Shown here one piece after another: positions 1 through 62,518 of a stretch of 64,000 nucleotides of DNA. How positions within the stretch are numbered: the first letter of the stretch is position 1; the number at the start of each line of letters is the position of its first letter. The notes under the pieces are model-generated. The model had not been told where the DNA came from. It made no database searches and saw nothing but the letters and a program-made list of their open reading frames with translations. Made by a program: the position numbers and the translations under genes. This DNA is from a virus (taxonomy: Duplodnaviria; Heunggongvirae; Uroviricota; Caudoviricetes), in the IMG/VR virus record IMGVR_UViG_3300018065_000012; one strand, 5' to 3'.

Positions 1-11
1 GAGAAAGAAGT

Positions 12-893
12 ATGAAAGTGGTTTCTTATTATGGTCAAAAAAGGCCAACAGATTATTGGACCTTTTGGACTGAAGGAATAGGAATTGCCTTGCCAAAAGC
101 AATCGGTGATGCAACTTTGGTTCCGTTGCCCCCTGATACTATATCATATGATGTAGTAGAAGGCGATTATGATATTGCGTTTTGTCATACTTGGGCGGTC
201 CCAAAAAAAAGACCAGCAGAGTTTGTCTATTCTTTTCTGAGCGACTATGTTAACAATGAAACCAAAATAAGAGAATGGATAAAAATCGTCCAGCCTGATC
301 TGCTTTGTTGTTTACAAACTTGTCCCGAAGAATTGATTGATTTTGGGAAAGCTGTTGGATGCAGGATCGAACTTGTGCCGTGGTTTGTTTTGGAAGTCCC
401 TGACCGTTTCGAAAAAACAATTACAGCTATGTGTTCAGGGTGTGTGGGGTCAGCTTACCCTTCCCGAACTCAAATATATGATCATCTTGTTTCGATGAAC
501 CGTTCTGATTTTGTTTTATCTTGTTCTGATGATTTCGGCAATTATCGCCTTTCAAGAGAAGGGTATGAAGAAGCAGTAAGGAGGACAAAATATTATTTTA
601 GCGGAGGGATTTATGACTTGTATATACCGCCAAAATATTACGAAGTTTGCGCATATGGAGCATGTTTGGCAAGCTTCGAAATGCCTTTTATGGAAAGATG
701 CGGTTTTGTTGACGGGGAAACGTATTTGAAACTTACAAGTATAGAGGATATCGGACGGATTCTGAAAACAGATCAGTATCAAGCGATTGGGAGAAACGCG
801 CAACAGATGATTCGAGAACGTCATACGGTGGAAAAGCGTGCGAGGCAAATACGTGAGTTTGCAAGAGAAAAATTTCAAAGCATTTGCAGGTGA
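12..893 (+). CDS. glycosyltransferase-like protein (GT-B C-terminal domain pattern)
   Basis: C-terminal region resembles the GT1/GT4 donor-binding pattern (E..CAYGAC...G.TYL....EDIGRIL...YQAIG.NA...I.E.H). Context is a glycosyltransferase cluster. Confidence 0.4.
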   Translation: MKVVSYYGQKRPTDYWTFWTEGIGIALPKAIGDATLVPLPPDTISYDVVEGDYDIAFCHTWAVPKKRPAEFVYSFLSDYVNNETKIREWIKIVQPDLLCCLQTCPEELIDFGKAVGCRIELVPWFVLEVPDRFEKTITAMCSGCVGSAYPSRTQIYDHLVSMNRSDFVLSCSDDFGNYRLSREGYEEAVRRTKYYFSGGIYDLYIPPKYYEVCAYGACLASFEMPFMERCGFVDGETYLKLTSIEDIGRILKTDQYQAIGRNAQQMIRERHTVEKRARQIREFAREKFQSICR

Positions 894-1428
894 TTGGCGT
901 ATCCGTGACGAGATTCAACGACTTGTCTCAAAGTATGGCATAACTATTGTTGTCGAGACGGGGACAAATCGCGGAGCCAGCACCGTCGTACTTGCTGAAA
1001 TGGTTGATACAGTCTGCACGATAGAAATAAATGAAAAAGCGGCAAAGGAGAACCGGCATTTAGACGAACACCCAAGAATTTTTCCGTTTATTGGTAGCTC
1101 TCCTGAAATTCTGAAACAGATTTTAACGCACGTCCTTGACGGTGTACTCTTTTATCTTGATGCTCATTGGCCTTCTTATTGGCCTTTGAGAGACGAGTTG
1201 AAGGTAATAGCAGAGCGTAAGATGGACCGTTCTGTAATCTGCATTCACGATTGCCAAGTGCCGGGGAAAGACTTCGGGTTTGACGAGTACAACGGTCAAA
1301 TCCTCAACATCGAGTATGTGCAAGACTTGTTGCCTTTGATATACGAGGATGGTTACGATTACCATTACAATGAAGTCGCTGAAGGCAACAGGCGTGGCAT
1401 TGTTTACATTACACCCAAGGAAAAATGA
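838..1428 (+). CDS. putative SAM-dependent methyltransferase-like protein
   Basis: Rossmann-like stretch ITIVVETGTNRGASTVVLAEM. Start uncertain; overlaps the 3' end of the previous ORF. Confidence 0.3.
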   Translation: MRGKYVSLQEKNFKAFAGDWRIRDEIQRLVSKYGITIVVETGTNRGASTVVLAEMVDTVCTIEINEKAAKENRHLDEHPRIFPFIGSSPEILKQILTHVLDGVLFYLDAHWPSYWPLRDELKVIAERKMDRSVICIHDCQVPGKDFGFDEYNGQILNIEYVQDLLPLIYEDGYDYHYNEVAEGNRRGIVYITPKEK

Positions 1429-2159
1429 TGGATGGCGTTGTTTATGTTATCGTGGGCGAACGGGATGTAGCGCATTTTCATACATCGCTTAGACTATTGA
1501 GGCATTTCAAACCCGATTTGCCTGTTGTAGTTTATCACGATATTCCCAAGGAGCGACTTGGGATAATGTCGCACGATGTGGAATTCAAGAAGTATACGCG
1601 AATCAGTTATCCACACCGAGAGGAAAACAGGAACAGCAGCTTGTGGCGGTTAATGGCCTTGAAAAAATCGACATTTGATACAACACTCTACATCGACAAT
1701 GATGTCTATGTGGTTCACGAAGGTTTTTTTGAGGGTTTCAAGATTGCCGAACACTATGGAATTTGCATGGTACAAAACGAGCGGGCGTTTATCAAAACGT
1801 TTGAAGGCGACATGGGCGATGCTGATATTGGCGAGGATGTCTTGGATTATGACAAACAGTTTATCAACGAAATGCCTTCGTATATGACAGCAATGAATAT
1901 GGGAGTGATATTCAACCATTTTTCAAAATGGAGTTGGTTTTTAGATGCGATGATAGAGGAACAAAAAGATCATCCCTCTCGTGGACAAGCTGGGCTTTAT
2001 AGAACGATTTGGAAAACAAAAAAGATGCCTTATTGTTTGCCGATGAATTGGCTTGCTTGTGGCGCTGTGGCCGATATAAAGCGTCCTCTGTCTTTGCATG
2101 TGGGTCATGTTCCTGCAATGGAGAGATTCAATCAAGAGTTTAGAGGGAAGCTGCTGTGA
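1425..2159 (+). CDS. hypothetical protein, possible GT-A glycosyltransferase (DxD-like LYIDNDVYVV)
   Basis: ORF with overlapping stop/start; DxD-like motif; surrounded by glycan genes. Confidence 0.3.
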   Translation: MMDGVVYVIVGERDVAHFHTSLRLLRHFKPDLPVVVYHDIPKERLGIMSHDVEFKKYTRISYPHREENRNSSLWRLMALKKSTFDTTLYIDNDVYVVHEGFFEGFKIAEHYGICMVQNERAFIKTFEGDMGDADIGEDVLDYDKQFINEMPSYMTAMNMGVIFNHFSKWSWFLDAMIEEQKDHPSRGQAGLYRTIWKTKKMPYCLPMNWLACGAVADIKRPLSLHVGHVPAMERFNQEFRGKLL

Positions 2160-2887
2160 GCGTCCATGAGTTTGAAGGTTTGAAGTACGATTTGCAAGAA
2201 GGTCATTCCATAGACGATAGCTTGCTGGAGGGGAAGTGCTTTGAACCTTGGACATGGAATTGGATTAAGCAATATGTAACCAAAGAATCTGCCTGTGTTG
2301 ATGTTGGAGCAAATTTTGGATGTTTCAGTGTATTGATGGCTTCGCTTGGAAAAAAGGTGTGGTGTTTTGAACCAATGCCCATTATTGAGCGTTTGATTTG
2401 CAATATGGAATTGAATAGGTTTACGAATTATAAGGCTTGTCAGTTTGTTGTGGGAAGTGAATGCCGAGAAGTTCATGCGAATTTTCAATACAAGTGGGAT
2501 GCAGAGAGCGATACGAATGAACAAGTGCATACCACAATGATAACACTTGATGATTTTATTCAGGGCAGGGTTGATTTCCTGAAGATTGATACTGATGGAG
2601 ATGAGTTGAGAGTGATTGACGGAATGAGGCGGTGTGTTGGCTCGTATCATCCTGTTGTTGTGCAAGAGTTGGCTGTTGACACGTTTGCTTTTGATGAAAA
2701 GACATGGAGCAAAGAACGACAAGATAATACGGGCAACTGGAAAGAAATACTGGACTTCTACTTCTCATTTGGTTATGAAATCAAGGCGCAGTCATTGGGC
2801 GCGCTGGCTACAAATGCAGAGCAGTTGGTTGAGATTGCGAAAGACCCGAACATATCCAGCATTGACGTGTTACTGGTGAACGAATGA
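2156..2887 (+). CDS. FkbM-family methyltransferase
   Basis: CVDVGANFGCFSVLMASLGKKVWCFEP matches the FkbM family signature (vvDvGAniG...vyafEP). Confidence 0.6.
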   Translation: MSVHEFEGLKYDLQEGHSIDDSLLEGKCFEPWTWNWIKQYVTKESACVDVGANFGCFSVLMASLGKKVWCFEPMPIIERLICNMELNRFTNYKACQFVVGSECREVHANFQYKWDAESDTNEQVHTTMITLDDFIQGRVDFLKIDTDGDELRVIDGMRRCVGSYHPVVVQELAVDTFAFDEKTWSKERQDNTGNWKEILDFYFSFGYEIKAQSLGALATNAEQLVEIAKDPNISSIDVLLVNE

Positions 2888-4173
2888 ACGTTGTTTTGAT
2901 ATATCCAAATCAAACTGAGTTGGACGACTTGTTGAGAAAGCATCCGCATGCTGGCGTTGAATATCGCGTCAATCCGCATATTTCATTAGGAATGTTGTCG
3001 CTTGTTTCAAATATTATTGGGCATAGAGTTACATATCTTGATAACAACATTGCAAAGTTTTCAAATGGAGACTTGATAAAGTGGCTTTCAAAAGAGAGCC
3101 CAGATGTGGTTGGTTTTGGCGGAACGTTTACAGAGTGGCCTCAAGCGAGAAGGGTTTCGCAGGTTTTGAGAAATCAAGGAGTTGTTACTGTTTATGGCGG
3201 GTCAAACGCTACGGTCCGCCCAGAAAAACATATCAAGCATTTTGATTATGTTGCAAGAGGACTTGCCGAAAAATCGTTTCAACAGCTTTTGGATGAGTTA
3301 GACAAAGGGAATAAAGAAATTGGAATACCCGGTATTTGCTTTAAGGCTGGTAATTTGTCGAGCATTGAAGCCCCGGTTTACGAATTAAATTTGGATGAGT
3401 TGAACCCACCAGATCGGAGTTTTGTAGACATAACCAAGTATCGGCGTGATCTTTCTCCAATGCCGCTTCCAGAGCCTGTTGATATTGTAATGTCAACTCG
3501 CGGGTGTCCGTTTGATTGTAAATTCTGCTCATCGAAAACAATTTGGAATCGGAGACATAACAAACGTTCTGTCGACTTGGTGATAGAAGAAATCAAAGGG
3601 ATGATGGAGCAATACGGAACAAGGTCGATTCATTTTAGGGAAGATAATTTTGTTATTGACAAAAAACGTTTGATAGATATGTGTTTTGGATTGAAGCATC
3701 TCGATATCAAATGGATTTGTCAAATGCGCATTGATAGCGTTGATGAGACAATGTTGCGTATGATGAAAGATTCTGGTTGCGTTGGCGTTACTTGCGGGTT
3801 TGAAAGCGCAAATGATTCGACATTGGAATATATTAGGAAGGGATTCCGGACTAAGGATATAAGGGAAGCGATCGATACATTTGGACGGGTTGGTCTTTAT
3901 TGGCTTGGCGGTTTTATGGTGGGCGTATTGAACGAAGGAGAGAAAGAGATTATCAGAACCCTTACATATGCGAGGGAGATAGGAAAAAAGCCGTATTCCC
4001 TTCAGCAGTTGGGAGCAATGCGCTTTGTTGGAATTCCAGTTTCTGAGACATATCGGGAGATGATTTCGAGTAATCTTGTAGAATATGATTGGCAAGACGG
4101 TGAGTTGCTTGTTTCGGGAACGCATAAATTGACGGCAAAGGAAGTTGATTCTTTGATGATCAAGTGTTCATAG
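2884..4173 (+). CDS. B12-binding-domain radical SAM protein (class B-like)
   Basis: N-terminal B12-binding-like Rossmann region (VVGFGGTFTEWPQARRV) followed by STRGCPFDCKFCSS (CxxxCxxC). Ends with TAG. Confidence 0.65.
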   Translation: MNVVLIYPNQTELDDLLRKHPHAGVEYRVNPHISLGMLSLVSNIIGHRVTYLDNNIAKFSNGDLIKWLSKESPDVVGFGGTFTEWPQARRVSQVLRNQGVVTVYGGSNATVRPEKHIKHFDYVARGLAEKSFQQLLDELDKGNKEIGIPGICFKAGNLSSIEAPVYELNLDELNPPDRSFVDITKYRRDLSPMPLPEPVDIVMSTRGCPFDCKFCSSKTIWNRRHNKRSVDLVIEEIKGMMEQYGTRSIHFREDNFVIDKKRLIDMCFGLKHLDIKWICQMRIDSVDETMLRMMKDSGCVGVTCGFESANDSTLEYIRKGFRTKDIREAIDTFGRVGLYWLGGFMVGVLNEGEKEIIRTLTYAREIGKKPYSLQQLGAMRFVGIPVSETYREMISSNLVEYDWQDGELLVSGTHKLTAKEVDSLMIKCS

Positions 4174-4181
4174 GAAATACG

Positions 4182-4784
4182 ATGCAGAAAAGAGAACAAA
4201 CAAGTTACGAAAGCTATATTGCAAAACAGATTGAAAAGACGAGCAATCCAAGCGTTATACAAGCACTTCAGAATGACGCTGATGTCCGCTTCTTGCGATT
4301 CAAAGAATATTTTGAAGCGTGTGGTTTGTTGGAATTTATGCCGCCAGCGCCAGATTCATTCGTTTTGTGTTTGGGGGCAAGATTAGGCGGAGAAGTTCGG
4401 GCGTTGCGAGAACTTGGTTATGAAAGATCAATTGGCGTTGACTTGCATCCACTTTCGGATTTGGTGGAAGTGGGCGACTTCCAAAATCTCAAATATGATG
4501 ACTGTTCTTTCAATGGGGTGTATAGCAATTCGTTAGACCATTGCTATGATTTGAAGACTGTTTTGTCCGAGGCAGAAAGGGTGCTTAAGCCTGAAGGGAT
4601 AATGATATTCAATTTGGGTATGAGGGCAGGAATGGGAGAGTACGAGACAATCATTATCGAATCGCCAGAAGAAGTAACGAAGCGCTTACCAAATTGCGAC
4701 GTTTTGCGTTCTGTCGCGAAACACTTCAATCTTCACGAACACGGTGGCTTGAACTTTGAAATGGTGTTAAGGAAGCAAGCATGA
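4182..4784 (+). CDS. class I SAM-dependent methyltransferase
   Basis: Motif I-like CLGARLGGEVRALRELGYERSIGVDL and motif post-I/II; LKPEGIMIF. Confidence 0.5.
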   Translation: MQKREQTSYESYIAKQIEKTSNPSVIQALQNDADVRFLRFKEYFEACGLLEFMPPAPDSFVLCLGARLGGEVRALRELGYERSIGVDLHPLSDLVEVGDFQNLKYDDCSFNGVYSNSLDHCYDLKTVLSEAERVLKPEGIMIFNLGMRAGMGEYETIIIESPEEVTKRLPNCDVLRSVAKHFNLHEHGGLNFEMVLRKQA

Positions 4785-5401
4785 ATGTGTTAGTGCGTGA
4801 CAAGAAAGTTCTCATGCTGTTTGCACATCCAGATGACGAAATCATTTGTGGTTGGCCTGTGTTACAACAGAAGGATGTTGAGAAAATTGTTCTTATCTGT
4901 TCAAATGATGCAAATAATCCCGAAAGAGAGTGGTGCAAACATCGAGGCGCGGCACTTCACGAATTGATGCATGCTTTAGATATTCCTTATATCTGTCTTG
5001 ATTTCAATTCGGGTTTTTATAGAATGCCCACAAGACCCAAACCAGAGTTGTCAGAAACGTTGCGGTGTATAAGGGATGAAGCCAGCGCTGTGGACTGTGA
5101 TATGATTTTCACGCACAATCCAATGGGCGAGTATGGACACGTTGACCATGTATTGATTCATCAGTTGGCGATGACCCTTGGGAAACCCGTGCTTGTGACG
5201 GACATGTTCGTACCGATGAATTGGGTTCCATATCAAAAGTTTGGAAACGGGTTTGAGCGTATGTATGGAAGGTCTGCTCATTGCGGAACAGAAGTGAGCG
5301 ATTTGGCTTTCTACCAAAAGTGTGAAAATGTTTACCGTAAGCACAACGTATGGACGTGGTGTAAACTGCCAGTACCTAAATGCGAGTTGTACATGCTATG
5401 A
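4781..5401 (+). CDS. PIG-L/LmbE-family N-acetylglucosaminyl deacetylase
   Basis: LMLFAHPDDEIICG matches the AHPDDE signature of LmbE/PIG-L deacetylases. Confidence 0.6.
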   Translation: MNVLVRDKKVLMLFAHPDDEIICGWPVLQQKDVEKIVLICSNDANNPEREWCKHRGAALHELMHALDIPYICLDFNSGFYRMPTRPKPELSETLRCIRDEASAVDCDMIFTHNPMGEYGHVDHVLIHQLAMTLGKPVLVTDMFVPMNWVPYQKFGNGFERMYGRSAHCGTEVSDLAFYQKCENVYRKHNVWTWCKLPVPKCELYML

Positions 5402-6261
5402 AAATCTTAGTCATTGTCGATGAATACGGTTGGGCTTTTTCTTTTTTTGCTCGTGGATGGAAAGACTATTCGCGCCATCAGATCGAGTATTTGAGAGTGG
5501 ATAAGGTAAGTCCAGAAACTTTGGAAAAGTTTGATGCGTTTTTCACGATGAACTCAAAGCAATATGATAATTGTCTCAACAAACCGCCTTTGAACAGGAC
5601 AATTTGCGGGTTGCGATCACCCTTCAAAGAATGGGAACAAGCGCGGCCTCATGATTTTATTGCAGTTGTAACAAATTCAAAAGAACTTCAAGAAGATACC
5701 TTGAAGGAACACACTAACGACAAAGAAAAGATTTTGTATATACGTGGCGCTATTGATGGGAACATCTTTACATACAGCCCAAAACTTGGAGACAAAGTTG
5801 GGTGGAGCGGAAACAGAACGCATGCAAAACGTTATCATTTGTTGAAGTGTCTTTGGTATCCAGTAGAGGAAAAATCAGATTGGAGCAGAGAATTTTTCAA
5901 GCGCGGTAGGACTCGCGACGATCAAGTTGCATTTTTGCGCTCTCTTAACTGTTATGTTCACCCTTCTATGAATGAAGCGATGAGTCAATCAATTATGGAA
6001 GCAGTTGCTTGCGGTATTCCCGTTGTAGCTACAAACGTGGGCGATTCAAAATATCTGATAGAAGAAGAATGGCTTGTTCCGCCATATCCAGAAGAGGAAT
6101 GTGTAAGACAAATGAATGAAAGGATAATGATGTTGATGACTGATTCAGAGTTGGCTCATTTTGTCGGGAGAAAGAACAGGGAACGATTTGATAAAGAAGG
6201 TTGGTGTTGGTCAAAACGTGCAAAAGAATACGATGACTTGTTTGATAGGTTCTTTGGCTAA
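5398..6261 (+). CDS. glycosyltransferase family 4-like
   Basis: C-terminal EAMSQSIMEAVACGIPVVATNVGDS is the typical GT4 E..G..EA.A.G.PVV motif. Confidence 0.5.
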   Translation: MKILVIVDEYGWAFSFFARGWKDYSRHQIEYLRVDKVSPETLEKFDAFFTMNSKQYDNCLNKPPLNRTICGLRSPFKEWEQARPHDFIAVVTNSKELQEDTLKEHTNDKEKILYIRGAIDGNIFTYSPKLGDKVGWSGNRTHAKRYHLLKCLWYPVEEKSDWSREFFKRGRTRDDQVAFLRSLNCYVHPSMNEAMSQSIMEAVACGIPVVATNVGDSKYLIEEEWLVPPYPEEECVRQMNERIMMLMTDSELAHFVGRKNRERFDKEGWCWSKRAKEYDDLFDRFFG

Positions 6262-6914
6262 TGGAACAGCATTTTCCAGATTCAATTTTCATATTGGCTT
6301 GTGGTCCATCGCTCGCAGAATGTAATGTGAGCAAGTTAAAGAACTGTAACACGATGGCAATAAAGCGTGCTTATATTGCTTTTGATGATTGGGGGTTTGA
6401 GCCAACATATTATGCAAACTTGGACATGTTATCTCAAAAGGAAAAGAAAGAAGAAATAATTGCGATGATTAGGAAGTATCAGAACATCAAACAATTTTTC
6501 TTTCCTTATCACGAGACAGTTGAGGAGTTCAAATTTGATCCAAGGGTTACGATAGTTGGAAACGTTGAAAGCAATCCAGTCAGGGTCAATTTAGACCTTC
6601 AGCGCTTGTATACCGCCAATAGTGGTTTGTTTGGCGTACAAGCGTCTGTTGCTATCCTCGGGTTTAGGAAAGTGTTTCTTTTGGGATGTGACGCAAGATA
6701 TAGCGACTCAATAAAAGAAAATCACTTCCGTTCCGATTATTGGGATGAGCGGAAACATAACCCACCGGGAGAATATCATTTGCCTGCTTGGAAACTTTTC
6801 TTTCGGAAGTATGTAAAAGGAAAATCGTTGAAAGTGTTTAATTGTGCGAGAAATGGTGCCTTGCAATTTTACGAGTATTGTGATTTCAATAAACTTGTTG
6901 AGCGACTTCCATGA
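6261..6914 (+). CDS. DUF115 / Maf (MptE-like) family protein
   Basis: IFILACGPSLAECNV ... FDDWGFEPTYYANLD resembles the GPSL ... D motifs of motility-accessory-factor/DUF115 proteins linked to flagellin/nonulosonic-acid glycosylation. Confidence 0.4.
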   Translation: MEQHFPDSIFILACGPSLAECNVSKLKNCNTMAIKRAYIAFDDWGFEPTYYANLDMLSQKEKKEEIIAMIRKYQNIKQFFFPYHETVEEFKFDPRVTIVGNVESNPVRVNLDLQRLYTANSGLFGVQASVAILGFRKVFLLGCDARYSDSIKENHFRSDYWDERKHNPPGEYHLPAWKLFFRKYVKGKSLKVFNCARNGALQFYEYCDFNKLVERLP

Positions 6915-7834
6915 AAATTACTGAACGCGTAGACAAACACACACATGTTCCAAAGGAAAAGCTTGTTTCAAAACCGCCTTTTCCTGACGCAATCAAAATT
7001 GAGGTTACGGCGAGATGTAATCTCAATTGTTCCTATTGTGCAACTAAAAAAGACTTGCGTGCAGTAGGTGATATGGATGAAGACTTTCTTTACAGAATTT
7101 TGCTCGAAGCCAAGCAAGCTGGAGTAAAAGAAATTGGGTTGTTCTTGTTGGGAGAACCATTTCTATTAAAGAAGCTTCCAGAGTATATTCGCTATACAAA
7201 GGAAGTTGCTAAGATAGATTATGTTTTCATTACAACCAATGGCGCTCTTTGTACGCCTGAAAAGCTTACTCCTGTAATGGATGCCGGTTTAGACAGCTTG
7301 AAAATTTCTATCAATGCTGGAAATCGTGAACGGTACAAAGAATTACATGGAGTTGATTGTTTTGATAAGGTGATTTCAAATGTAAAGTGGTTGAGTGAGA
7401 ACAAGCCGAATTCGTTGCGCACGTGTGTAAGCGCAATATTTATTGAGCAATTCAGGGATGAGTTAGAACAACTTAAAAAATTTATTCTTCAGTATGTTGA
7501 TGAATTTTATTATCTTCCGTTGTATAATCAAGCAGGACATGTTGGAAAACGCTTTCCAACTAAAATCGTTGGAAATCCCGGAAGGTATGAAAACATGGTT
7601 CCACCAATTCCCTGCTGGGGGTTGTTTAACTCAGCAAAGATTTCTTGGGATGGTTGGTTGACTGCTTGCTATTTTGATCACGATACGCAGTTTGAGATCG
7701 CCAACTTGAAAGATTTCACTTTGCTTGAAGCATGGAATCATCCGAAATTCGTGAAGTTGCGATTGCAACATCTCAACAATAATTTGGCTGATTCGCTTTG
7801 TGCTGCTTGCTTGGGTATGCCGAATAATGAATGA
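6911..7834 (+). CDS. radical SAM protein with SPASM-like C-terminal Cys cluster
   Basis: EVTARCNLNCSYCA (CxxxCxxC), GLFLLGEPFL and a C-terminal Cys-rich segment CWGLFNSAKISWDGWLTACYFD. Confidence 0.6.
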   Translation: MKITERVDKHTHVPKEKLVSKPPFPDAIKIEVTARCNLNCSYCATKKDLRAVGDMDEDFLYRILLEAKQAGVKEIGLFLLGEPFLLKKLPEYIRYTKEVAKIDYVFITTNGALCTPEKLTPVMDAGLDSLKISINAGNRERYKELHGVDCFDKVISNVKWLSENKPNSLRTCVSAIFIEQFRDELEQLKKFILQYVDEFYYLPLYNQAGHVGKRFPTKIVGNPGRYENMVPPIPCWGLFNSAKISWDGWLTACYFDHDTQFEIANLKDFTLLEAWNHPKFVKLRLQHLNNNLADSLCAACLGMPNNE

Positions 7835-8612
7835 TTTGAAAGACGTCACGTTTACTATTCCCATACGCGTAGATATGCGCGAAAGGGGAATTTGTCTTCA
7901 CGTTGTTGTTGGCTGCTTGTTACATTATTTTGATACAAATATAATCATTTTGGAGGACGACAAGGAACAAAAGGTTCCAAAATACTTACCAAAAGATTTG
8001 CTTGATCGTTGTAATTATATATTTGTCAAAACTGACAATGAATTGTTTCACCGGACTCGTTGGTTGAATGAAATGGCAAAGGCAGCAACAACGCCAATTG
8101 TTGTGAACCAAGATGGAGATTTGGCTTGTAAGCCGGAATTTCTCTTACGATCAGCTAACGTAATCAGAAATGGAGAATGTAAGTTTTCAATTCCTTATGA
8201 AAGGAACGTGCATTTTTATCATGGTGGTACTGAGAAAAGATTTATAAATAGCGGGTTTGATTTTGAGATGTTGAAGAAAGAGCGTCGTGCAAATACGGGA
8301 CAAGGACAAGTAGGTGGTATAGTTTTTAGCGACCAGCAAACATACTTTGAAATAGGAATGGAAAATGAGAATTTTGTGTCATGGGGTTTTGAGGATGATG
8401 AAAGGATGCACAGAATGGTGGCTTTGGGCTATCCGCCAAAGCGAATAACAGGCGGGGAGCTTTATCATTTTCATCACGGGCGAAATATAAATTCTGATTA
8501 CTCAAATCCTAATTTGAAGAAAAATATAGCAGAACGTAACAAGATTTTAGGGATGAAGATGGATGAGCTAAAAACATATGTTCAGACTTGGCCATGGATA
8601 CAGCAAGGGTGA
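7827..8612 (+). CDS. GT-A glycosyltransferase, beta-1,4-galactosyltransferase-like
   Basis: SWGFEDDERMHRMVALGY resembles the WGWGGEDDD motif of the galactosyltransferase C-terminal domain. Confidence 0.45.
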   Translation: MNDLKDVTFTIPIRVDMRERGICLHVVVGCLLHYFDTNIIILEDDKEQKVPKYLPKDLLDRCNYIFVKTDNELFHRTRWLNEMAKAATTPIVVNQDGDLACKPEFLLRSANVIRNGECKFSIPYERNVHFYHGGTEKRFINSGFDFEMLKKERRANTGQGQVGGIVFSDQQTYFEIGMENENFVSWGFEDDERMHRMVALGYPPKRITGGELYHFHHGRNINSDYSNPNLKKNIAERNKILGMKMDELKTYVQTWPWIQQG

Positions 8613-8616
8613 ACTC

Positions 8617-8874
8617 ATGTCAGAGTTGGTTAAAAAAGTTGGCGTCAAAAAAGAAAAAGGCTATTTGTATTTTGTTGATAGCGATGGCGATATATCACGA
8701 GCAAAGATGGTCCGCAGAGGCTCAATAGTGCCCGTTGATCCACCGGAAAAAGTGATAAGTGGGGTAGGGGTCAAGAGAGAACCGAATTGGAATTATTTCG
8801 TCGACAAAGAAGGTCATATTTCCCGCTCACCTTCACGCAGAAGAAGGATTGACAAAATGGAGAAAGAGAAATGA
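8617..8874 (+). CDS. hypothetical protein with internal duplicated motif YFVDxDGxISR
   Basis: KGYLYFVDSDGDISRAKM and NWNYFVDKEGHISRS repeats within 85 aa. Confidence 0.35.
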   Translation: MSELVKKVGVKKEKGYLYFVDSDGDISRAKMVRRGSIVPVDPPEKVISGVGVKREPNWNYFVDKEGHISRSPSRRRRIDKMEKEK

Positions 8875-9668
8875 GCGGATTGTTAGCTGGGATAGGGAAG
8901 ATTTTTAACGGTGTCAAATATGATTTTCCCTTGGAGGCTTGCATCGCTTCTGTTTTGGAAGGGGCAGATGAATTTGTTTTGACCGTTTGTACAGACTCAG
9001 AAGACAACACTCATGAGTATTGCGTTGAACTTCAAAAGAAGTTTAACGGCAGGTTGAAAATCCTTTTGGATGTTTGGAGAGAAACGCCTGCTGAGAACTA
9101 TACCAACATGACGCGTCTTGCAAACAAAGCAATTGATGCTTCTAATTGTGATTGGTTTTGGTCAATTGACATGGATGAAATTGTTCCAACGGGGGAAGCA
9201 AATAAGCTTGCTCATTTTTTGCGTCATCAACCAATAGGCGTCACGTGCGCAATGGTGAATTTCAATCATTTATATATCGACTTGGAACACAAGATTCTTG
9301 GAAAACTGTATGACAAAATTCACCGCGTCGCAAAAGCTGGGTTTGGCTGGCGCAGCGGAATGGATGGTTGTGGATTAGGCGGTGGAAGTGGCAGAACCGT
9401 TAGCGCACCTGTGGTTGTTAATCATTACGGGTTTGTTCGTGACATGATAATAATGATTGAAAAAGAGAGCCGTTTCCAATCAGAATTGTTTCATAGTGGT
9501 GTTCCGGGTTTGCCAGATCAGCGTTTGATTGATTTCAAAAGAAAAACTCCAGAGTCGAAAAAGGCATTCTATGATGCGTTTGTAAGTCCAAACGATACGG
9601 TCATTCCTTACGACGGCCCACCGCATCATCCGCTTGCAATTCAAAAATATGGAGACGCTGTCTCATGA
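8871..9668 (+). CDS. glycosyltransferase family 2-like (GT-A)
   Basis: N-terminal ADEFVLTVCTDSEDNT and DxD-like SIDMDEIV. Confidence 0.4.
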   Translation: MSGLLAGIGKIFNGVKYDFPLEACIASVLEGADEFVLTVCTDSEDNTHEYCVELQKKFNGRLKILLDVWRETPAENYTNMTRLANKAIDASNCDWFWSIDMDEIVPTGEANKLAHFLRHQPIGVTCAMVNFNHLYIDLEHKILGKLYDKIHRVAKAGFGWRSGMDGCGLGGGSGRTVSAPVVVNHYGFVRDMIIMIEKESRFQSELFHSGVPGLPDQRLIDFKRKTPESKKAFYDAFVSPNDTVIPYDGPPHHPLAIQKYGDAVS

Positions 9669-10558
9669 TCGTCGTACGAAAGGGAGCGCTTGGAGATATT
9701 TTGATGACCACGCCAGCATTCCGAGAACTGAGGCGCAGGAATCCAAATATGTACATTGGCGTCAGAACGTTGTTCCCCGACGTTTTTGCAAACAGTCCTT
9801 ATGTCGACGAAGCGTCTGTGCGTTTGGACAGGAACAACGAAAGAAAACTCAAACTGGACGCGGAATATGAAAAGGACTTCAACCGTCATCCTGCTCATGT
9901 TTATGCAAAAGCAATCGTAGGAGATTGTGAATTTGATTGGTGGAATCTTGAACTTTTTCCAACAGAAAAAGAGCGGCTATATGTTGATGAGTGGTGGAAT
10001 AAAAACGTAAAAGACGCTTGGCCCGTAGTCGTCCTTCATTATGGGATTACATGGGTTAAATTACAATCGGCTGAAATGGAAAAATTGATACAAGCTTTGA
10101 CAAAAGAATTCAAAGTCATTCTTGTTGGAAGAAAAACCCGGAGCAAAGAATATTACCCACAATTTCGTGAAGGCGTTTTGGACTTGGTAGATGCTGAGTG
10201 GAGCATTCACAAGTTGAATTGGTTGATCCAAAAAGCCAATATGTTTGTTGGTACGGATACAGGCGTGATGCATATTGCAGCAACGACAACGACGCCGATT
10301 GTTTGCTGTTATGGTTTTGTGAATCCAGAGTTCAGAAAACCATTCAGACAGAAAATTCCTTTTGAATCTGTTGTAGGCGACATGAGCGGTTGTAATATCC
10401 CTTTCTGCGCAGAAGGGAATAAGATTAAATGTCCAAATGGAGACTTTGGCGGTGTGCGGTGCAAAAGGGATTACGCCTGTGCAAAGAGTATTACTGCTGA
10501 AATGATTTTGGAGAAAGTCAACAAAATCAAAGCAGACATTATGAAAGGTCAACAATGA
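9665..10558 (+). CDS. glycosyltransferase family 9 (heptosyltransferase-like)
   Basis: MIVVRKGALGDILMTTPAFRELRRRNP matches the GT9 N-terminal signature (i.r.salGDvl.t.Pal..lk...P). Confidence 0.55.
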   Translation: MIVVRKGALGDILMTTPAFRELRRRNPNMYIGVRTLFPDVFANSPYVDEASVRLDRNNERKLKLDAEYEKDFNRHPAHVYAKAIVGDCEFDWWNLELFPTEKERLYVDEWWNKNVKDAWPVVVLHYGITWVKLQSAEMEKLIQALTKEFKVILVGRKTRSKEYYPQFREGVLDLVDAEWSIHKLNWLIQKANMFVGTDTGVMHIAATTTTPIVCCYGFVNPEFRKPFRQKIPFESVVGDMSGCNIPFCAEGNKIKCPNGDFGGVRCKRDYACAKSITAEMILEKVNKIKADIMKGQQ

Positions 10559-11964
10559 GCAACAAATCCAGAGAAAAGAAACGCAAAGAAAAAGCGAAAC
10601 GAAAAAAACAACGGAACAAGGACAAGATCAATCATAGCATTGCTCCAATGCCGCCTGAGTTCAAGAAACAGATTTTGCCTTACGCTGTTATTAAGCTGTT
10701 GACCAATGCGGAAATTCAAGAACGTTATAAGCTGCGCGATGATTTGGTCTGCATCCGTTGGAATAACGAAGATGAAATCTTGCACAGTGAAGATTTCAAA
10801 ATGGTGAAAGAAGTAGCGCAACGCATACACAAAGAACAAGTCGTTCAGAAAAATCTTCACAACACATTGTCAACAGTTCCAACAGCGTTAGATTTACATT
10901 ACGAGGCAGCACGGCATATAAGGAAAATGGTTGATGGTGAAAGTAAAGGGAAAAAGAAGCTTATCTTCATCAAAGACCAATCAGGTTGTGGCTACTGGAG
11001 AATGGTTGTTCCAGCGAGATATATGACCACAGAGGAATATTATATTGACATGGCAGAAATTGAGGTCATTTATGATTATCTTCTTGAGTATGATGTGATT
11101 GTAGTTCAGCGGCTTTGCCGATGGTCAGAATACTATACCATCATAAGATTGAAGCGGCAAAACAAGCGAATCGTTTATGACATTGACGATAACATTTTTG
11201 ATGTTCCGCTTGATAATCCTGCCGCCTATGTAATCAAGAAAGATCAGTATGAAGCGGCTCGCGCTATCATGAGCGTCTGTGATGTTGTAACAACGACAAC
11301 GGAGATTTTGAAAGAACAACTGAAGTGTCCCGACAAGACAATAGTGGTTCCAAACGCAATTGATTTTGACGACGGTTATCCTGCAAAATATCTTGGTCAA
11401 CCAGACAACTACAAGCGCATCTTGTGGATGGGCAGCGCGACACACAATCAAGATTGGTTACAATGCGCTGATGCTGTCGACAGGGTAATGAGGGAAAGGG
11501 GCGACGTCCGGTTGGTCATTATTGGTTCAATGCCAAAAACTTTAGAGCAATATGTAGGAGACCCAAGACGCCCGTGGTATAAAAAGCGAATTGAGTTTGA
11601 AAAGTTCAAGCATGTTGAAACATATGTTCTTACTACAAAGCAACTTAGAGCAAATTGCGGACTTGCTCCATTGCAAGAATCTGTTTTCAATAGTTCAAAA
11701 TCAAACATCAAGTGGTTGGAGTACACAGGGGCAGGCGTTCCAACAATTGCAAGTAATGTTAGTCCCTACAAGGAAGACATCGTCCATGGGACAAATGGAT
11801 TTCTTGCAAATACAGAAAACGAGTGGTACCAAGCAATTACAAATCTCCTTGACGCTCCTGATATATGCACAAGCGTTGTTAGCGCAGCAAAAAAATCAAT
11901 TGAGCAAAAGTTTGATATCAAGCAAGTTATACACAAATGGGAAGAAACCATTCTTGGCGAATAA
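10555..11964 (+). CDS. glycosyltransferase family 4-like with Lys-rich N-terminus
   Basis: C-terminal GVPTIASNVSPYKEDIVHGTNGFLANTENEW is the typical retaining GT-B motif. N-terminal KKRKEKAKRKKQRNK tract. Confidence 0.5.
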   Translation: MSNKSREKKRKEKAKRKKQRNKDKINHSIAPMPPEFKKQILPYAVIKLLTNAEIQERYKLRDDLVCIRWNNEDEILHSEDFKMVKEVAQRIHKEQVVQKNLHNTLSTVPTALDLHYEAARHIRKMVDGESKGKKKLIFIKDQSGCGYWRMVVPARYMTTEEYYIDMAEIEVIYDYLLEYDVIVVQRLCRWSEYYTIIRLKRQNKRIVYDIDDNIFDVPLDNPAAYVIKKDQYEAARAIMSVCDVVTTTTEILKEQLKCPDKTIVVPNAIDFDDGYPAKYLGQPDNYKRILWMGSATHNQDWLQCADAVDRVMRERGDVRLVIIGSMPKTLEQYVGDPRRPWYKKRIEFEKFKHVETYVLTTKQLRANCGLAPLQESVFNSSKSNIKWLEYTGAGVPTIASNVSPYKEDIVHGTNGFLANTENEWYQAITNLLDAPDICTSVVSAAKKSIEQKFDIKQVIHKWEETILGE

Positions 11965-12022
11965 TTTTTTGATATTTTACGGTTAGTAGAGACATATCAT
12001 ATTGAAATTAGGAGGTTAGAAA

Positions 12023-13225: not shown

Positions 13226-13252
13226 GGCGCGGAAATATTGATCGGGGGAACA

Positions 13253-13744
13253 ATGCCACTGTATGAATACAAGTGTGAAGACTGTGGAAACGTGACTGAG
13301 TTTTTATCCCGTAACGGGAAAAAGCTGGTGGTGCTGTGTTCCAGATGTAAGAGTCATCATACAAATCGGATCATGAGTTCTTTCTCGGTTAAAGAAGGGC
13401 CAACGCTTGATTTCAAAAGAGCACACGACAATGCAAAAAAAGAAGCAGTTATGAAACAAGACTTGAAGACAAACTACGGTGTCGAAAAAATATCAATGGC
13501 AAATAACACGGCAGGAAAAACTTTCAAGGATACATACAGTGATATAAAAGCTCAAGGAAGTGCGGTCCCTGAAGCAATGGCTGCGCAAAAAGAGATTAAC
13601 AAGAAAAAGACGCGTAAAAAACAAAAGGAATGGATGAAGGGTGCGTTGAAAAGAACGCCTAAGCGCAGGGCAGAATTGAAAGCAAGGAAGGAGAAAGCAG
13701 CTGCTGAAAAAAGAAAAATCAGTATTGGAAAAAAAGAAAGTTGA
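13253..13744 (+). CDS. FmdB-family zinc-ribbon protein with Lys-rich tail
   Basis: MPLYEYKCEDCGNVTEF...CSRCKSHH matches the FmdB zinc-ribbon pattern. Confidence 0.5.
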   Translation: MPLYEYKCEDCGNVTEFLSRNGKKLVVLCSRCKSHHTNRIMSSFSVKEGPTLDFKRAHDNAKKEAVMKQDLKTNYGVEKISMANNTAGKTFKDTYSDIKAQGSAVPEAMAAQKEINKKKTRKKQKEWMKGALKRTPKRRAELKARKEKAAAEKRKISIGKKES

Positions 13745-13761
13745 CCTCATCAGAGGAGAAT

Positions 13762-14031
13762 ATGATGGCTAAAGCTAAACCAGAAGATTTCAAACATACC
13801 GTTCTCAAAGTCATTTTTTCAAAGCAGATTGGCGATAACAACCGTATTGATTTGCGCGTTGTAAAATGGGACAATTCAAAGAAGCCAACGTTAGAATATC
13901 GCCGTTTGTATTTCGATAAGAATTATGAAGAATGGAGAATGAGAAAACAAGCAGGCATTGGCGCTGAAGAGTGGAAAACGCTTTTGGAAAACGCCAATGA
14001 AATTACAAAGCTATTAGAGAAGGAAGAGTAA
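13762..14031 (+). CDS. hypothetical protein
   Basis: RBS GAGGAG 5 nt upstream of ATG. Confidence 0.4.
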   Translation: MMAKAKPEDFKHTVLKVIFSKQIGDNNRIDLRVVKWDNSKKPTLEYRRLYFDKNYEEWRMRKQAGIGAEEWKTLLENANEITKLLEKEE

Positions 14032-14033
14032 TT

Positions 14034-14785: not shown

Positions 14786-14805
14786 CGCAAATGTTTTCAA
14801 ACGAG

Positions 14806-14814
14806 TTGTATAAT
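14806..14814 (+). promoter_or_regulatory. TTGTATAAT extended -10-like promoter motif
   Basis: GAGTTGTATAATATA in intergenic gap upstream of the RBS/ATG at 14844. Confidence 0.4.
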
Positions 14815-28947: not shown

Positions 28948-29167
28948 CATATGCAAAAAATGCATCGGGCGTTTGAAACTTTCTTGGTATGTTGATCCAG
29001 AAACGGACAAACAGATGTTGCGCAATTGTCCTGCGGCATGGGTAATCGCTTATGACGAGCAAGCGCCACCAGCTTGTAGATACATCCTTGAGCAAACGCT
29101 TCAAAAGGAAGAATTGAAGCCACGCATCCTTGATGAAGACTACTATGATTCGCGGGGGATAGAATGA
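28934..29167 (+). CDS. CPF-LEH family small Cys-rich protein
   Basis: MPNISICKKCIGR ... PPACRYILEQTLQKEE. Confidence 0.45.
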   Translation: MPNISICKKCIGRLKLSWYVDPETDKQMLRNCPAAWVIAYDEQAPPACRYILEQTLQKEELKPRILDEDYYDSRGIE

Positions 29168-61234: not shown

Positions 61235-61808
61235 AACGATCGCAACACAATGTCGTTACGGCGATATAGCAGGACGCATTTGGAGTGATTGGGAGATCAT
61301 CTGGGAAGACAGTGAAGCCGATTATCAAGGCCATGCGTCTATCGTCGCAACCAAAGATGGAAAGTGGGCTTTATATGAATGGTGGTACGGTTCTTGTTCC
61401 GGTTGTGATGGCTGGGAGAGCGATGGTAAGGACGAAGACGAAATTGAAGCTGAAATGCGCAAGGATGCTTTGTGGTTTGATGATTTCAAAGCATTCTGCG
61501 ATTGGTTTACAGGTCTCAAAGGTGATTTCCGCAGCAACGCCGATATGAATCGCGGCGGTGGCGGGATGGTTTTCGGTTTGGACCTTATGTCTGGCGGTTT
61601 GAAAACTCGCGTTGCTGGGATGAAAGATATTGCAATGGCCGCAGGATGTGCTTACATTTCGCGTCAGCCAAAACATGAAATTATTTGCAAGAAATGCAAA
61701 AAGTATTCTGACGTTGAGTTGCCGCATGAAATGACGCCGCAAGAAACGCCAGAGTGGTGTCCGTATCAGCTCGAACACTTAATGAAAGCGCAGGGGGAAA
61801 GCGAATGA
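61221..61808 (+). CDS. 195-aa protein with C-terminal CPF-LEH module
   Basis: C-terminal EIICKKCKKYS ... TPEWCPYQLEHLMKAQ; Trp/Asp-rich N-terminal domain with CSGCDGW. Confidence 0.4.
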   Translation: MKWDETIATQCRYGDIAGRIWSDWEIIWEDSEADYQGHASIVATKDGKWALYEWWYGSCSGCDGWESDGKDEDEIEAEMRKDALWFDDFKAFCDWFTGLKGDFRSNADMNRGGGGMVFGLDLMSGGLKTRVAGMKDIAMAAGCAYISRQPKHEIICKKCKKYSDVELPHEMTPQETPEWCPYQLEHLMKAQGESE

Positions 61809-62518
61809 AAGGTGTAATTTTGGCAGGAGGATCAGGTAGCCGTTTGTTTCCGCTTACCCGTGTTAGCAACAAGCATTTATTGCCTGTTGGAAAACAACCG
61901 ATGATTTTCTGGTCCATCCAAAGCTTGATGGAAGCTGGTATCTTTGAAATTCTTATTGTGACCGGCAAAGGGCATATGGGCGATATGGTCGACATGCTTG
62001 GCTCAGGTGTTGAGTTTGGCGCTGAATTTACTTACAAGGTTCAAGATGAAGCTGGCGGTATTGCTCAAGCGCTGGGCTTGGCAAGGGACTTCGTCGGCGA
62101 GAATAACCGCGTGGTGGTTATTTTGGGCGATAACGTTTTTCAGGATGACATTGAACCGTATGTAGAGGCGTTCCAGAAGCAAAAAACAGGGGCAAAGGTT
62201 CTGCTCAAAGAGGTTCCTGACCCCAAACGTTATGGAGTGGCCGAGATTGTTCCAAATCGTATCATTTCGATTGAAGAGAAGCCTTCAAAACCTAAGTCAA
62301 ACTACGCTGTGACGGGCATCTATTTTTACGACGAAAAGGTGTTTGATGTAGTTTCAACGCTCAAGCCTTCAGGCCGTGGGGAGTTGGAAATCACAGATGT
62401 CAACAATTGGTATATCCAACGTGGTGAAATGACTTATGATTTGTTGAAGGGCTGGTGGACAGACGCAGGAACGTTTGAGAGTTATCATCATGCAAACAAG
62501 TTGGCCATGGAAGGCTGA
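61805..62518 (+). CDS. rmlA: glucose-1-phosphate thymidylyltransferase (RmlA-like sugar nucleotidyltransferase)
   Basis: MKGVILAGGSGSRLFPLTRVSNKHLLPVGKQPMIFWSIQSLMEAGI ... YGVAE matches the RmlA/RfbA signature. Confidence 0.8.
   Translation: MKGVILAGGSGSRLFPLTRVSNKHLLPVGKQPMIFWSIQSLMEAGIFEILIVTGKGHMGDMVDMLGSGVEFGAEFTYKVQDEAGGIAQALGLARDFVGENNRVVVILGDNVFQDDIEPYVEAFQKQKTGAKVLLKEVPDPKRYGVAEIVPNRIISIEEKPSKPKSNYAVTGIYFYDEKVFDVVSTLKPSGRGELEITDVNNWYIQRGEMTYDLLKGWWTDAGTFESYHHANKLAMEG

Follow-up and report, generated by a model that had tools for sequence, protein, structure and literature searches.

A 19-gene island in a huge phage, predicted to assemble and tailor a glycan

We analysed a 64,000-nucleotide stretch of viral DNA (IMG/VR record IMGVR_UViG_3300018065_000012; hereafter the window), the first 12 kb of which contain most of a 19-gene, 15.1-kb island for glycan assembly and tailoring. 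The element that carries it is very probably a huge phage, with a genome of at least 338 kb. Our tentative proposal, to which we give a probability of roughly 0.45, is that the island serves glycosylation in the cytoplasm and that the acceptor is most likely a protein made by the phage. It draws on the gene content of the island, on the genomic context of its two radical S-adenosylmethionine (SAM) enzymes, and on the export functions that the island lacks.

Layout and gene content of the island

Fifteen consecutive open reading frames (ORFs) on the + strand fill positions 12-11964 of the window, with 4-base start/stop overlaps at nearly all junctions and no competing long ORFs on the opposite strand. 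A sequence-only reading of this DNA had described them as a 12-kb, fifteen-gene run of glycan genes. The run itself was borne out by the ORF layout and by Pfam and NCBIfam profiles, but the island proved to be larger, as the window edge cuts it. Window base 1 is base 7118 of a longer contig, L001, on which the island begins 3.1 kb upstream of the window and spans positions 3977-19081, with 15 of its 19 genes inside the window. The genes are listed below (GT, glycosyltransferase; aa, amino acids).

Four co-oriented genes before g1 (L001 3977-7132), in order:
GT2 glycosyltransferase, 385 aa
Methyltransf_11 methyltransferase, 163 aa
Glyco_transf_17-like protein, 262 aa
u4, GT-A-like (Nucleotid_trans-like) glycosyltransferase, 242 aa; its homologues carry the Nucleotid_trans GT-A domain

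Genes inside the window:
12..893 (+): g1, short GT-B (GT4-like) glycosyltransferase, 293 aa; Pfam Glyco_trans_1_2 27.3 bits (cut-off 25)
853..1428 (+): g2, candidate class-I SAM methyltransferase, 191 aa; Methyltransf_24/CmcI 20.1 and 17.9 bits, sub-threshold
1425..2159 (+): g3, candidate GT-A glycosyltransferase, 243-244 aa; Mannosyl_trans3 18.8 bits, sub-threshold; DxD motif YIDNDVY
2156..2887 (+): g4, FkbM-family methyltransferase; Pfam 46.2 bits, NCBIfam fkbM_fam 70.5 bits (cut-off 37.7)
2884..4173 (+): g5, class-B (B12-domain) radical SAM enzyme, 429 aa; Pfam Radical_SAM 61 bits; motif CPFDCKFC
4182..4784 (+): g6, class-I SAM methyltransferase (Methyltransf_11); Pfam 39.3 bits
4781..5401 (+): g7, PIG-L/LmbE-family de-N-acetylase; Pfam 38.7 bits (cut-off 28.2)
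5398..6261 (+): g8, GT4 glycosyltransferase; Pfam Glycos_transf_1 44.4 bits, Glyco_trans_1_4 44.1 bits
6261..6914 (+): g9, DUF115/MptE-like protein, 217 aa; Pfam 21.8 bits, below the 34.6 cut-off
6911..7834 (+): g10, BtrN-like twitch radical SAM enzyme, 307 aa; Radical_SAM 81.7 bits, SPASM 40.4 bits (cut-off 21.5)
7827..8612 (+): g11, GT-A glycosyltransferase (Glyco_transf_7C/GT2-like); Pfam Glyco_transf_7C 30.4 bits (cut-off 23), weak GT2 match
8578..8874 (+): g12, 98-aa protein with no annotated function; internal duplication of about 24 aa, with YFVDxxGxISR twice
8871..9668 (+): g13, GT2 glycosyltransferase; Pfam 24.8 bits (cut-off 23.3)
9665..10558 (+): g14, short GT9 (heptosyltransferase-family) protein; Pfam 43 bits, C-terminal domain only
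10555..11964 (+): g15, GT4 glycosyltransferase, 469 aa, last island gene; Pfam 45.3 bits

Pfam matches lay above the curated cut-off for g1, g4, g5, g6, g7, g8, g10, g11, g13, g14 and g15 and below it for g2, g3 and g9, while g12 had none. The 15 window genes comprise eight predicted glycosyltransferases, three SAM methyltransferases, the PIG-L deacetylase, two radical SAM enzymes (one of class B, the other of the BtrN-like twitch kind) and g12, which matched no family. For the whole island the content is 11 predicted glycosyltransferases (of GT2, GT4, GT9, GT17-like, GT-A/Nucleotid_trans-like and GT42/Maf-like types), four SAM methyltransferases, one deacetylase, two radical SAM enzymes and one unknown protein. 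Evidence from profiles, homologues or folds bore out or strengthened each family assignment of the sequence-only reading.

The zinc and catalytic motifs of the deacetylase g7, AHPDDE and HVDH, are intact (they read LFAHPDDEII and GHVDHV), and its gene is directly followed by the GT4 gene g8. The candidate methyltransferase g2 contains an ExGxxxGxS-type SAM motif, VVETGTNRGAST. Against the NCBIfam models for heptosyltransferase I/II/III and Aah/TibC, g14 scored 31-42 bits, in every case under the cut-off, and its matches in the Protein Data Bank (PDB) were 3tov and 1psw. The two copies of the g12 duplication are VGVKKEKGYLYFVDSDGDISR and VGVKREPNWNYFVDKEGHISR; this protein matched neither Pfam nor PHROG families.

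The g9 product had been read from the sequence as a Maf/DUF115-like protein, and three results agree with this. Homologues of 40-52% identity carry PF01973; the AlphaFold2 model (mean predicted confidence, pLDDT, 85.7) is closest to CstII and CstI, which are sialyltransferases of family GT42 (E 3e-6, template-modelling (TM) score 0.55-0.60); and g9 matches the PHROG family 'alpha-2,3-sialyltransferase' at 1.7e-9. Against the Maf glycosyltransferase 5mu5 the model gave TM 0.62, which falls to 0.24 when normalised to Maf, and the 217-aa protein consists of a DUF115/GT42-like core without the flanking domains of Maf-type transferases, which are about 600 aa long. On the model, g9 is a candidate transferase for a sugar activated by cytidine monophosphate (CMP), of nonulosonic-acid type, which suggests one CMP-activated donor, sialic-acid-like or Kdo-like (Kdo, 3-deoxy-D-manno-octulosonate). 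No gene for nonulosonic-acid synthesis (NeuB/PseI-type synthase, CMP-sugar synthetase) and no flagellin target was found among the Pfam matches of the window.

The same island is present in a sister phage (contigs L012/L013). Its proteins are 58-81% identical between the two phages (for example g1 67%, g5 78%, g9 about 80%, g3 81% and g10 81%), except for the upstream u4 (46%), whereas flanking genes are 38-63% identical. As the island is better conserved than its flanks, it is under purifying selection. Only one island gene, the FkbM gene g4, is missing from the sister phage, and the pair g12-g13 is relocated within the sister island (L012 5233-6302), which suggests that the two genes form a functional unit. 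Gene content of the island varies in the manner of glycan loci. At the upstream end of the sister locus (L012/L013 1-289) a 303-aa protein that runs off this end shows a weak Pfam match to the anti-CRISPR AcrVA2.

On its 5′ side the island is flanked by an SbcC-like ATPase and a RuvC-like gene, and on its 3′ side by a charged protein and a zinc-ribbon protein. The charged protein (12023-13225, +; 400 aa) directly follows the island, is probably helical and gave no family match; its position is kept in the sister phage, with 38% identity. The GC content of the island is that of the rest of the window, and scans for promoters and terminators gave counts no better than chance.

Three further sugar genes, all announced by the sequence-only reading, lie elsewhere in the window:
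29164..29823 (+): TylF-like sugar O-methyltransferase, a possible accessory; Pfam TylF 81.7 bits
54848..55402 (+): RmlC, dTDP-4-dehydrorhamnose 3,5-epimerase (dTDP, deoxythymidine diphosphate); NCBIfam rmlC 193 bits (equivalog cut-off 155.75)
61805..62518 (+): RmlA-like sugar-1-phosphate nucleotidylyltransferase; Pfam NTP_transferase 201 bits, NCBIfam rmlA 242 bits (below the equivalog cut-off of 361)

Judged by these profiles, RmlC and the RmlA-like enzyme would supply donor sugar. Both genes are 43-50 kb from the island in this phage. In the sister phage only about 3 kb separate the island from an RmlA-like gene downstream of it, an arrangement that supports a functional tie to dTDP-sugar supply and so lends weight to the earlier linking of the Rml genes with the island.

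Two radical SAM families and their genomic context

The radical SAM motif of g5 (CxxxCxxC, C208-x3-C212-x2-C215) is invariant across 34 homologues, and homologues of g5 carry the B12-binding domain PF02310. From residue ~46 onwards g5 aligns over both the B12-domain and the radical SAM parts of class-B NCBIfam models. The best of these were BchE (121 bits) and HpnJ (120 bits), together with ApyD and PhpK (range 104-121 bits), all far under the equivalog cut-offs. One homologue, P0113, is a fusion of a GT2 and a B12 radical SAM protein. The AlphaFold2 model of g5 (pLDDT 94.8) has the class-B two-domain fold, and its best full-length PDB match was AprD4 (TM 0.78-0.80, 18-19% identity), followed by OxsB, TsrM, MgmA and TokK.

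Class-B enzymes include the sugar C-methylases GenK, GenD1 and MoeK5, and g5 had been described from the sequence as a B12-binding radical SAM protein typical of C-methylation. The B12-domain class-B assignment stands. C-methylation is plausible from the model as one possibility among several, because the best structure (AprD4) and the best sequence models (BchE and HpnJ) are all non-methylases. AprD4 is a radical SAM 1,2-diol dehydratase whose target is paromamine's glucosamine unit, which it does not methylate, and BchE and OxsB are further class-B enzymes that are not methylases. HpnJ, another one, contracts the ring of glucosamine after the deacetylase HpnK (PMC9204698 and general knowledge). 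We regard g5, on its modelled fold, as a sugar-tailoring candidate that could be a C-methylase, a dehydratase or a ring-contracting enzyme.

The second radical SAM enzyme, g10, has seven invariant cysteines, Cys36/40/43 (CxxxCxxC) and Cys235/253/297/300. It had been called a SPASM protein, and the radical SAM core and the auxiliary cysteines were confirmed. However, the full seven-cysteine SPASM motif, which holds two auxiliary clusters, is absent from the g10 family, where 23 homologues have four conserved C-terminal cysteines, and with just these four the domain is twitch-like. The best solved structure for the family profile was BtrN (1.4e-20, versus 1.9e-10 for MoaA), and the alignment with BtrN spans the core and the twitch domain, including all four auxiliary cysteines. 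BtrN itself is a dehydrogenase: it uses radical SAM chemistry to oxidise a secondary alcohol of 2-deoxy-scyllo-inosamine. Because family profile and auxiliary cysteines both align with BtrN, g10 is most simply a candidate one-auxiliary-cluster radical dehydrogenase of a sugar or cyclitol hydroxyl, or possibly an epimerase. The family is unusually conserved (60-72% identity, ~310 aa), and some of its members come from named Bacteroidota.

What surrounds the relatives of these two genes? Profile scans with g5 in GTDB genomes and IMG/VR gave 160 loci of at most 31% identity, whose neighbours seldom matched island proteins. The informative contexts came instead from metagenome homologues at 38-51% identity. 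All five cellular contexts examined for g5 (38-49% identity) are glycan clusters, and a cellular homologue of g10 (about 60% identity) lies in one as well:

L014 (615-kb genome), g5 homologue: Wzx, GT2, GT4, methyltransferase, PMT_2
L176, g5 homologue: Wzi-Wza-Wzz-Wzx-[rSAM]-methyltransferase-GT4 (rSAM, radical SAM gene)
L178 (sample series shared with the phage), g5 homologue: GT9-LpxD-LpxI-Kdo kinase-[rSAM]-GT2-carbamoyltransferase-RmlABCD
L180, g5 homologue: DegT-DUF2334-[rSAM]-GT4-Wzx-GT4-PMT_2
L181, g5 homologue: GT4-DUF2334-methyltransferase-[rSAM]-methyltransferase-GT4-Wzx
L183, g10 homologue: ABC transporter, UDP-galactopyranose mutase, glycosyltransferases

Frequent companions of the cellular g5 homologues are Methyltransf_11, a deacetylase-like DUF2334 gene and GT4. 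The presence of both radical SAM families in bacterial glycan clusters, with Wzx, capsule or lipopolysaccharide (LPS) genes around g5 homologues, provides independent support for the view that the island synthesizes a glycan, as the sequence-only reading had supposed.

Relatives also occur on mobile and phage-like contigs. L177 (JGI 3300005253 Ga0073583_1292192) is a 63-kb Mu-like phage contig with a module at 1510-10940 that holds homologues of g5 (42%), g7, g3 (6e-17) and u4, the last within a two-domain GT2 and Nucleotid_trans protein. This module is interleaved with two N6/N4 DNA methylases, one C5 methylase and Mom, and lies directly upstream of the portal gene; no recognisable dioxygenase of the 5-methylpyrimidine type (5mYOX) was found on L177. 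From its sequence it is a candidate radical-SAM-tailored glycosylation module for DNA or for the virion. The mobile contig L179 carries a radical SAM gene, a Nucleotid_trans glycosyltransferase, a methyltransferase, PIG-L, two GT2 genes and an integrase, and in both L177 and L179 the g7 homologue adjoins the radical SAM gene. As the trio of GT-A glycosyltransferase, PIG-L deacetylase and class-B radical SAM enzyme is present in the island, in L177 and in L179, it is a recurring mobile module.

A 161-kb contig, L185 (ENA ERZ27249004 k141_344471), has at 1-18939 an island of at least 19 kb on one strand (+), with 28% GC. It encodes about ten glycosyltransferases, including a sialyltransferase-like Glyco_transf_29 protein, as well as FkbM, two Methyltransf_11 proteins, a UDP-GlcNAc 2-epimerase, a g10 homologue of 61% identity and a g6 homologue (1e-19). 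Possibly L185 represents another large element that carries a comparable toolkit.

Missing export functions and candidate acceptors

A 19-residue Kyte-Doolittle scan found no transmembrane helix in the 19 island proteins; its only signals were two single-window blips of 1.62, in g9 and g11. By Pfam there is no initiating polyprenyl-phosphate glycosyl- or phosphoglycosyltransferase of WecA/WbaP type among them, and no oligosaccharyltransferase was found in the island. Neither the island with its flanks nor the sister phage showed a flippase (Wzx) or ABC exporter, a polymerase (Wzy), a regulator of chain length or a ligase. In five of the six cellular contexts (L014, L176, L180, L181 and L183) a flippase or exporter adjoins the homologous radical SAM gene; the sister phage, L177, L179 and L185, which are the other four phage-like loci, showed none. 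Because exporters adjoin the cellular relatives and are absent from the phage-like loci, we favour cytoplasmic, carrier-independent glycosylation of an acceptor made by the phage.

The glycan would be made as follows. Nucleotide sugars of the host would be drawn on during infection and topped up by the phage RmlA-like and RmlC enzymes, and one transfer step may take a CMP-activated sugar. The sugars would be added singly, in the cytoplasm, straight onto the acceptor. In the core module, transfer of an N-acetylhexosamine (HexNAc) would be followed by de-N-acetylation by PIG-L and then by modification of the amino sugar, through O- or N-methylation and radical chemistry (C-methylation, deoxygenation, ring contraction, or conversion of a hydroxyl to a ketone). 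We suggest this sequence because the adjacency g5-g6-g7-g8 has a counterpart in bacteria, where genes of the same radical SAM family recurrently accompany a methyltransferase, GT4 and a deacetylase-type gene. A glycan on the virion would shield or change the particle surface, and for virion glycosylation by phage glycosyltransferases there is a precedent in Freeman et al. 2023, in the form in which that work is cited in PMC12619734. Among possible acceptors we rank a phage protein as most likely, followed by a host lipid-linked glycan and then by phage DNA.

Several points weigh against a phage protein as the acceptor. There is no structural gene in the ~76 kb read, so that a positional link to virion proteins is missing; in mycobacteriophages the glycosyltransferase genes lie in or near the structural module. 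The peripheral glycosyltransferases of O-antigen and LPS synthesis are also soluble, and use of the carrier lipid, flippase and ligase of the host is possible. GT9 points towards envelope glycans, as does the occurrence of the g5 family among LPS and capsule genes, and the related module of L177 is interleaved with DNA methyltransferases and Mom. Furthermore, g2 and g3 are candidates assigned by sub-threshold matches, and the glycan product, its acceptor and the enzyme activities are predicted from sequence, context and models.

The first alternative is remodelling of the host envelope, which we consider rather unlikely. Here, the soluble phage enzymes would modify undecaprenyl-linked or lipid A-core intermediates of the host at the inner membrane face, and the initiating transferase, flippase and ligase of the host would display an altered LPS, O-antigen or capsule. 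Superinfection could thereby be blocked, receptor availability changed or the infected cell protected. This agrees with the occurrence of g5-family homologues in Wzx, capsule and LPS clusters, one of them (L178) from the sample series of the phage contigs, with the heptosyltransferase-family GT9 enzyme of the island, and with RmlA-like and RmlC genes, which are typical of O-antigen loci. Cyanophage clusters with 13 glycosyltransferases and 22 genes are also usually read as envelope remodelling (PMC12801897). On the other hand, all five phage-like loci are without flippase, polymerase, ligase, chain-length regulator and initiating transferase, while their cellular relatives nearly always keep one of these. 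Besides, the Wzx and ligase of the host would presumably need to accept a foreign, heavily tailored glycan, and no lysogeny genes were seen in the window.

Hypermodification of phage DNA is the second alternative, and an improbable one. An oligosaccharide would be built on a hydroxymethylated phage base and tailored by the deacetylase, the methyltransferases and the radical SAM enzymes, and so evade restriction and nucleases. The L177 homologues, situated among the two N6/N4 methylases, the C5 methylase and Mom, fit this idea, and phage glycosyltransferases are described that put mono- to trisaccharides of hexose, HexNAc or heptose on 5-hydroxymethylcytosine (bioRxiv 10.1101/2023.12.21.572611). 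The N-terminus of g15 (window 10555-10640) is very basic and rich in Lys and Arg, MSNKSREKKRKEKAKRKKQRNKDK, is kept in the sister phage (L012 16603-16690) and, by its composition, could bind nucleic acid or an anionic membrane. The window has in addition dUTPase, dCTP-deaminase-like and NUDIX genes. However, C5 and N6/N4 methylases, Mom, a TET/JBP-type dioxygenase and a thymidylate-synthase-like (ThyS-like) hydroxymethylase were undetected in the window, in the 7 kb upstream of it, in the part of the downstream flank that could be read and in the sister locus. A Pfam search of 100 window proteins gave no C5 methyltransferase, dioxygenase or ThyS-like family, with ~76 kb of the at least 338 kb covered, and phmmer with the DNA methylases and Mom of L177 gave nothing in the window, L001, L005 or L012. 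Eleven glycosyltransferases are far above the need of the DNA glycans described, which are trisaccharides at most. L177 itself is without a recognisable 5mYOX, its module also abuts the portal gene, and the cellular relatives are all polysaccharide-cluster enzymes. Should this improbable reading be true, the genome of a huge phage would bear a long, methylated amino-sugar oligosaccharide tailored by radical SAM enzymes, far beyond the known DNA trisaccharides.

We also considered a soluble metabolite, aminoglycoside-like or glycolipid-like, with no glycan linked to a macromolecule, and find this very unlikely. The best solved-structure matches of both radical SAM enzymes, AprD4 and BtrN, are aminoglycoside enzymes, and the pairing of GT4 with PIG-L mirrors BtrM/BtrD, MshA/MshB and HpnI/HpnK-HpnJ (general knowledge; for HpnJ, PMC9204698). 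These structural matches are, however, at fold or superfamily level only, and NCBIfam scores were far below the equivalog cut-offs. No 2-deoxy-scyllo-inosose synthase, aminotransferase, cyclitol, resistance or export genes were among the window Pfam matches, and the close homologues lie in polysaccharide clusters, not in antibiotic clusters.

The huge phage and known glycan systems

That the element is viral, which the sequence-only reading had left as a condition, was upheld by PHROG matches and by homologues in huge, jumbo and T4-like phages. Island proteins were found on contigs of 0.2-1 Mb, one of them 338,319 bp long, and 100 non-island proteins match 61 PHROG families. All called genes over the ~76 kb read are on the + strand, and the majority are short and lack annotation. 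Throughout the window GC skew stays positive, with a cumulative curve that climbs monotonically; together with the single-strand genes, this fits a single long replichore or transcription unit in a huge phage. An AAA ATPase matches jumbo phages.

Could the window instead be part of a cellular chromosome or of a giant non-viral extrachromosomal element, and the island a fragment of an ordinary surface-polysaccharide locus? No capsid, portal, terminase or tail genes were found in the ~76 kb read of the at least 338-kb genome, an exact 50-mer of the window had no hit in IMG/VR, and a nucleotide search with the island gave no match among 50,697 phage records. In the same records tblastn with g7 and with g9 gave no match, and with g5, g10 and g15 distant matches only (20-30% identity). 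The non-viral view is nevertheless highly improbable in the face of the 61 PHROG families, the one-strand order of mostly small, unannotated genes and the huge, jumbo and T4-like phage homologues. The window also contains a suppressor tRNA, and no ribosomal or housekeeping genes were found in it. A Borg-like element, with one-strand genes and strong GC skew, was considered and rejected, as tandem-repeat arrays are absent and the content of phage families is high.

The suppressor tRNA (35505-35579, +) has the anticodon CUA, which reads UAG; ARAGORN called it tRNA-Pyl and the Rfam tRNA model gave 67.9 bits. A 15-bp tandem repeat of 2.1 copies lies just before it, at 35473-35504. TAG terminates 13 of the 95 ORFs of at least 100 aa in the window, and recoding of TAG within the window was rejected, as the standard code gives ~90% coding and TAG read-through adds almost nothing. 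By analogy with other phages, late genes in another part of the genome may be recoded and use this tRNA. The host is hinted at by this tRNA and by the Bacteroidota names among g10 homologues.

Some other genes of the window deserve mention. A Vault_3 repeat and the shoulder domain of major vault protein (77.9 bits) are present in an 868-aa protein (30701-33307, +), which over 96% of its length shares 42-43% identity with proteins from 'uncultured phage' genomes of 462 kb and 735 kb; in the 462-kb phage, LR756500, it is the sole gene shared with the window within ±20 kb. Separate from the island, a second radical SAM/SPASM-like gene (16672-17814, +; 380 aa, Pfam below cut-off) has full-length homologues of 42-44% identity in 172 records of T4-like Klebsiella, Enterobacter, Cronobacter and Escherichia phages, where they are mostly annotated as hypothetical. 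As judged by sequence similarity, it represents a widespread phage radical SAM family. The nucleotide and ADP-ribose genes of the window, besides the dUTPase, dCTP-deaminase-like and NUDIX genes already named, include HD phosphohydrolases, NADAR and YAcAr/SLOG, and there are also a PD-(D/E)XK nuclease, an SNase, DUF3268 and a match to the PHROG 'DNA methyltransferase' (2e-10).

Glycosylation encoded by viruses has been well studied in the giant viruses of eukaryotes, and only recently were a few mycobacteriophages shown to have it. To our knowledge, in huge phages it is known only as 'glycosyltransferase' annotations. Mycobacteriophage glycosyltransferases act in the cytoplasm on tail-tube and capsid proteins and use neither a lipid carrier nor an exporter. 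Their operons resemble the island in having soluble phage glycosyltransferases, together with methyltransferases, and no lipid-carrier or export functions. They differ in consisting of a few genes in or near the structural module, whereas the island has 19 genes, with two radical SAM enzymes and a deacetylase, is known from its genes alone, and had no structural genes found near it. The giant viruses (Mimivirus with its fibril glycans, the chloroviruses with their capsid N-glycans) use autonomous cytoplasmic machinery to put methylated and rare bacterial-type sugars on virion proteins. Their clusters are of comparable size, their hosts are eukaryotic, no similarity in sequence between them and the island was detected, and we know of no description of radical SAM tailoring enzymes in these clusters.

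Among bacterial systems, the Wzx-dependent loci L014, L176, L180 and L181 have an orthologous-looking radical SAM gene (38-49%) beside Methyltransf_11, a deacetylase-type gene and GT4 or GT2. In contrast to the island, which has no membrane proteins, they possess Wzx (Polysacc_synt), Wza/Wzz/Wzi or a GT-C protein (PMT_2). The island also shares with surface-polysaccharide loci several glycosyltransferases (11 predicted) plus RmlC and RmlA-like genes, which here are 43-50 kb away. Both radical SAM chemistries have been characterised mainly in antibiotic pathways. With BtrN of the butirosin pathway, g10 has in common the core and the four-cysteine twitch domain, and with AprD4 of the apramycin pathway g5 shares the full two-domain fold (TM 0.8). 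The order glycosyltransferase, PIG-L-type deacetylase, class-B radical SAM enzyme recurs in the hopanoid-glucosamine trio HpnI/HpnK/HpnJ (PMC9204698 and general knowledge). However, these pathways act on small molecules or lipids, identity to them is low, and other aminoglycoside or hopanoid genes were not found here. Two uncharacterised, widespread, glycan-linked radical SAM families are defined by the island, one of class B and one BtrN-like twitch family of ~310 aa, and both could reveal new sugar modifications in surface polysaccharides.

Phage DNA glycan clusters (Pyle et al., bioRxiv 10.1101/2023.12.21.572611) likewise use GT-A and GT-B enzymes derived from those of LPS and teichoic-acid type, and yield HexNAc and heptose products; the related module of L177 also sits among DNA-modification genes. 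They differ from the island in their C5 methyltransferase plus 5mYOX or ThyS-like hydroxymethylase, which were not found near it, and neither a radical SAM enzyme nor a deacetylase is mentioned in that work.

The closest counterpart in gene number is the cyanomyovirus S-SCSM2R, whose cluster comprises 13 glycosyltransferases and 22 cell-wall-type genes with a radical SAM gene among them; S-SCSM1 and P-SSM2 carry related genes (PMC12801897). The 'Moraphages' have four core glycosyltransferase families. Like the element here, the cyanomyoviruses are large tailed phages with a dense glycosyltransferase block, RmlC among the sugar-nucleotide enzymes and an in-cluster radical SAM gene, and in both cases function is read from annotation only (PMC12801897). 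Their clusters include GT10, GT11, GT25, KdsA/B and epimerases, and are without PIG-L, the class-B radical SAM enzyme, the BtrN-like twitch enzyme, GT9 and the GT42-like gene. They also infect another host lineage, and the element here is a phage of more than 338 kb. Several members of the set formed by the class-B and twitch radical SAM enzymes, PIG-L, GT9 and the GT42-like protein have no relative in the 50,697 phage records or in PHROGs.

The sequence-only reading had called the toolkit unusually elaborate. The island is indeed large, among the largest self-contained phage glycan toolkits, and combines sugar transfer with two radical SAM chemistries; S-SCSM2R tempers the claim. Which acceptor it serves, be it virion, envelope or DNA, would tell what huge phages do with their surplus of coding capacity. 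Phages with large glycan clusters have been described before, with the functions deduced. The present cluster differs from these in lacking export functions entirely, in its enzyme set, in the size of the island and in its setting within a huge phage.

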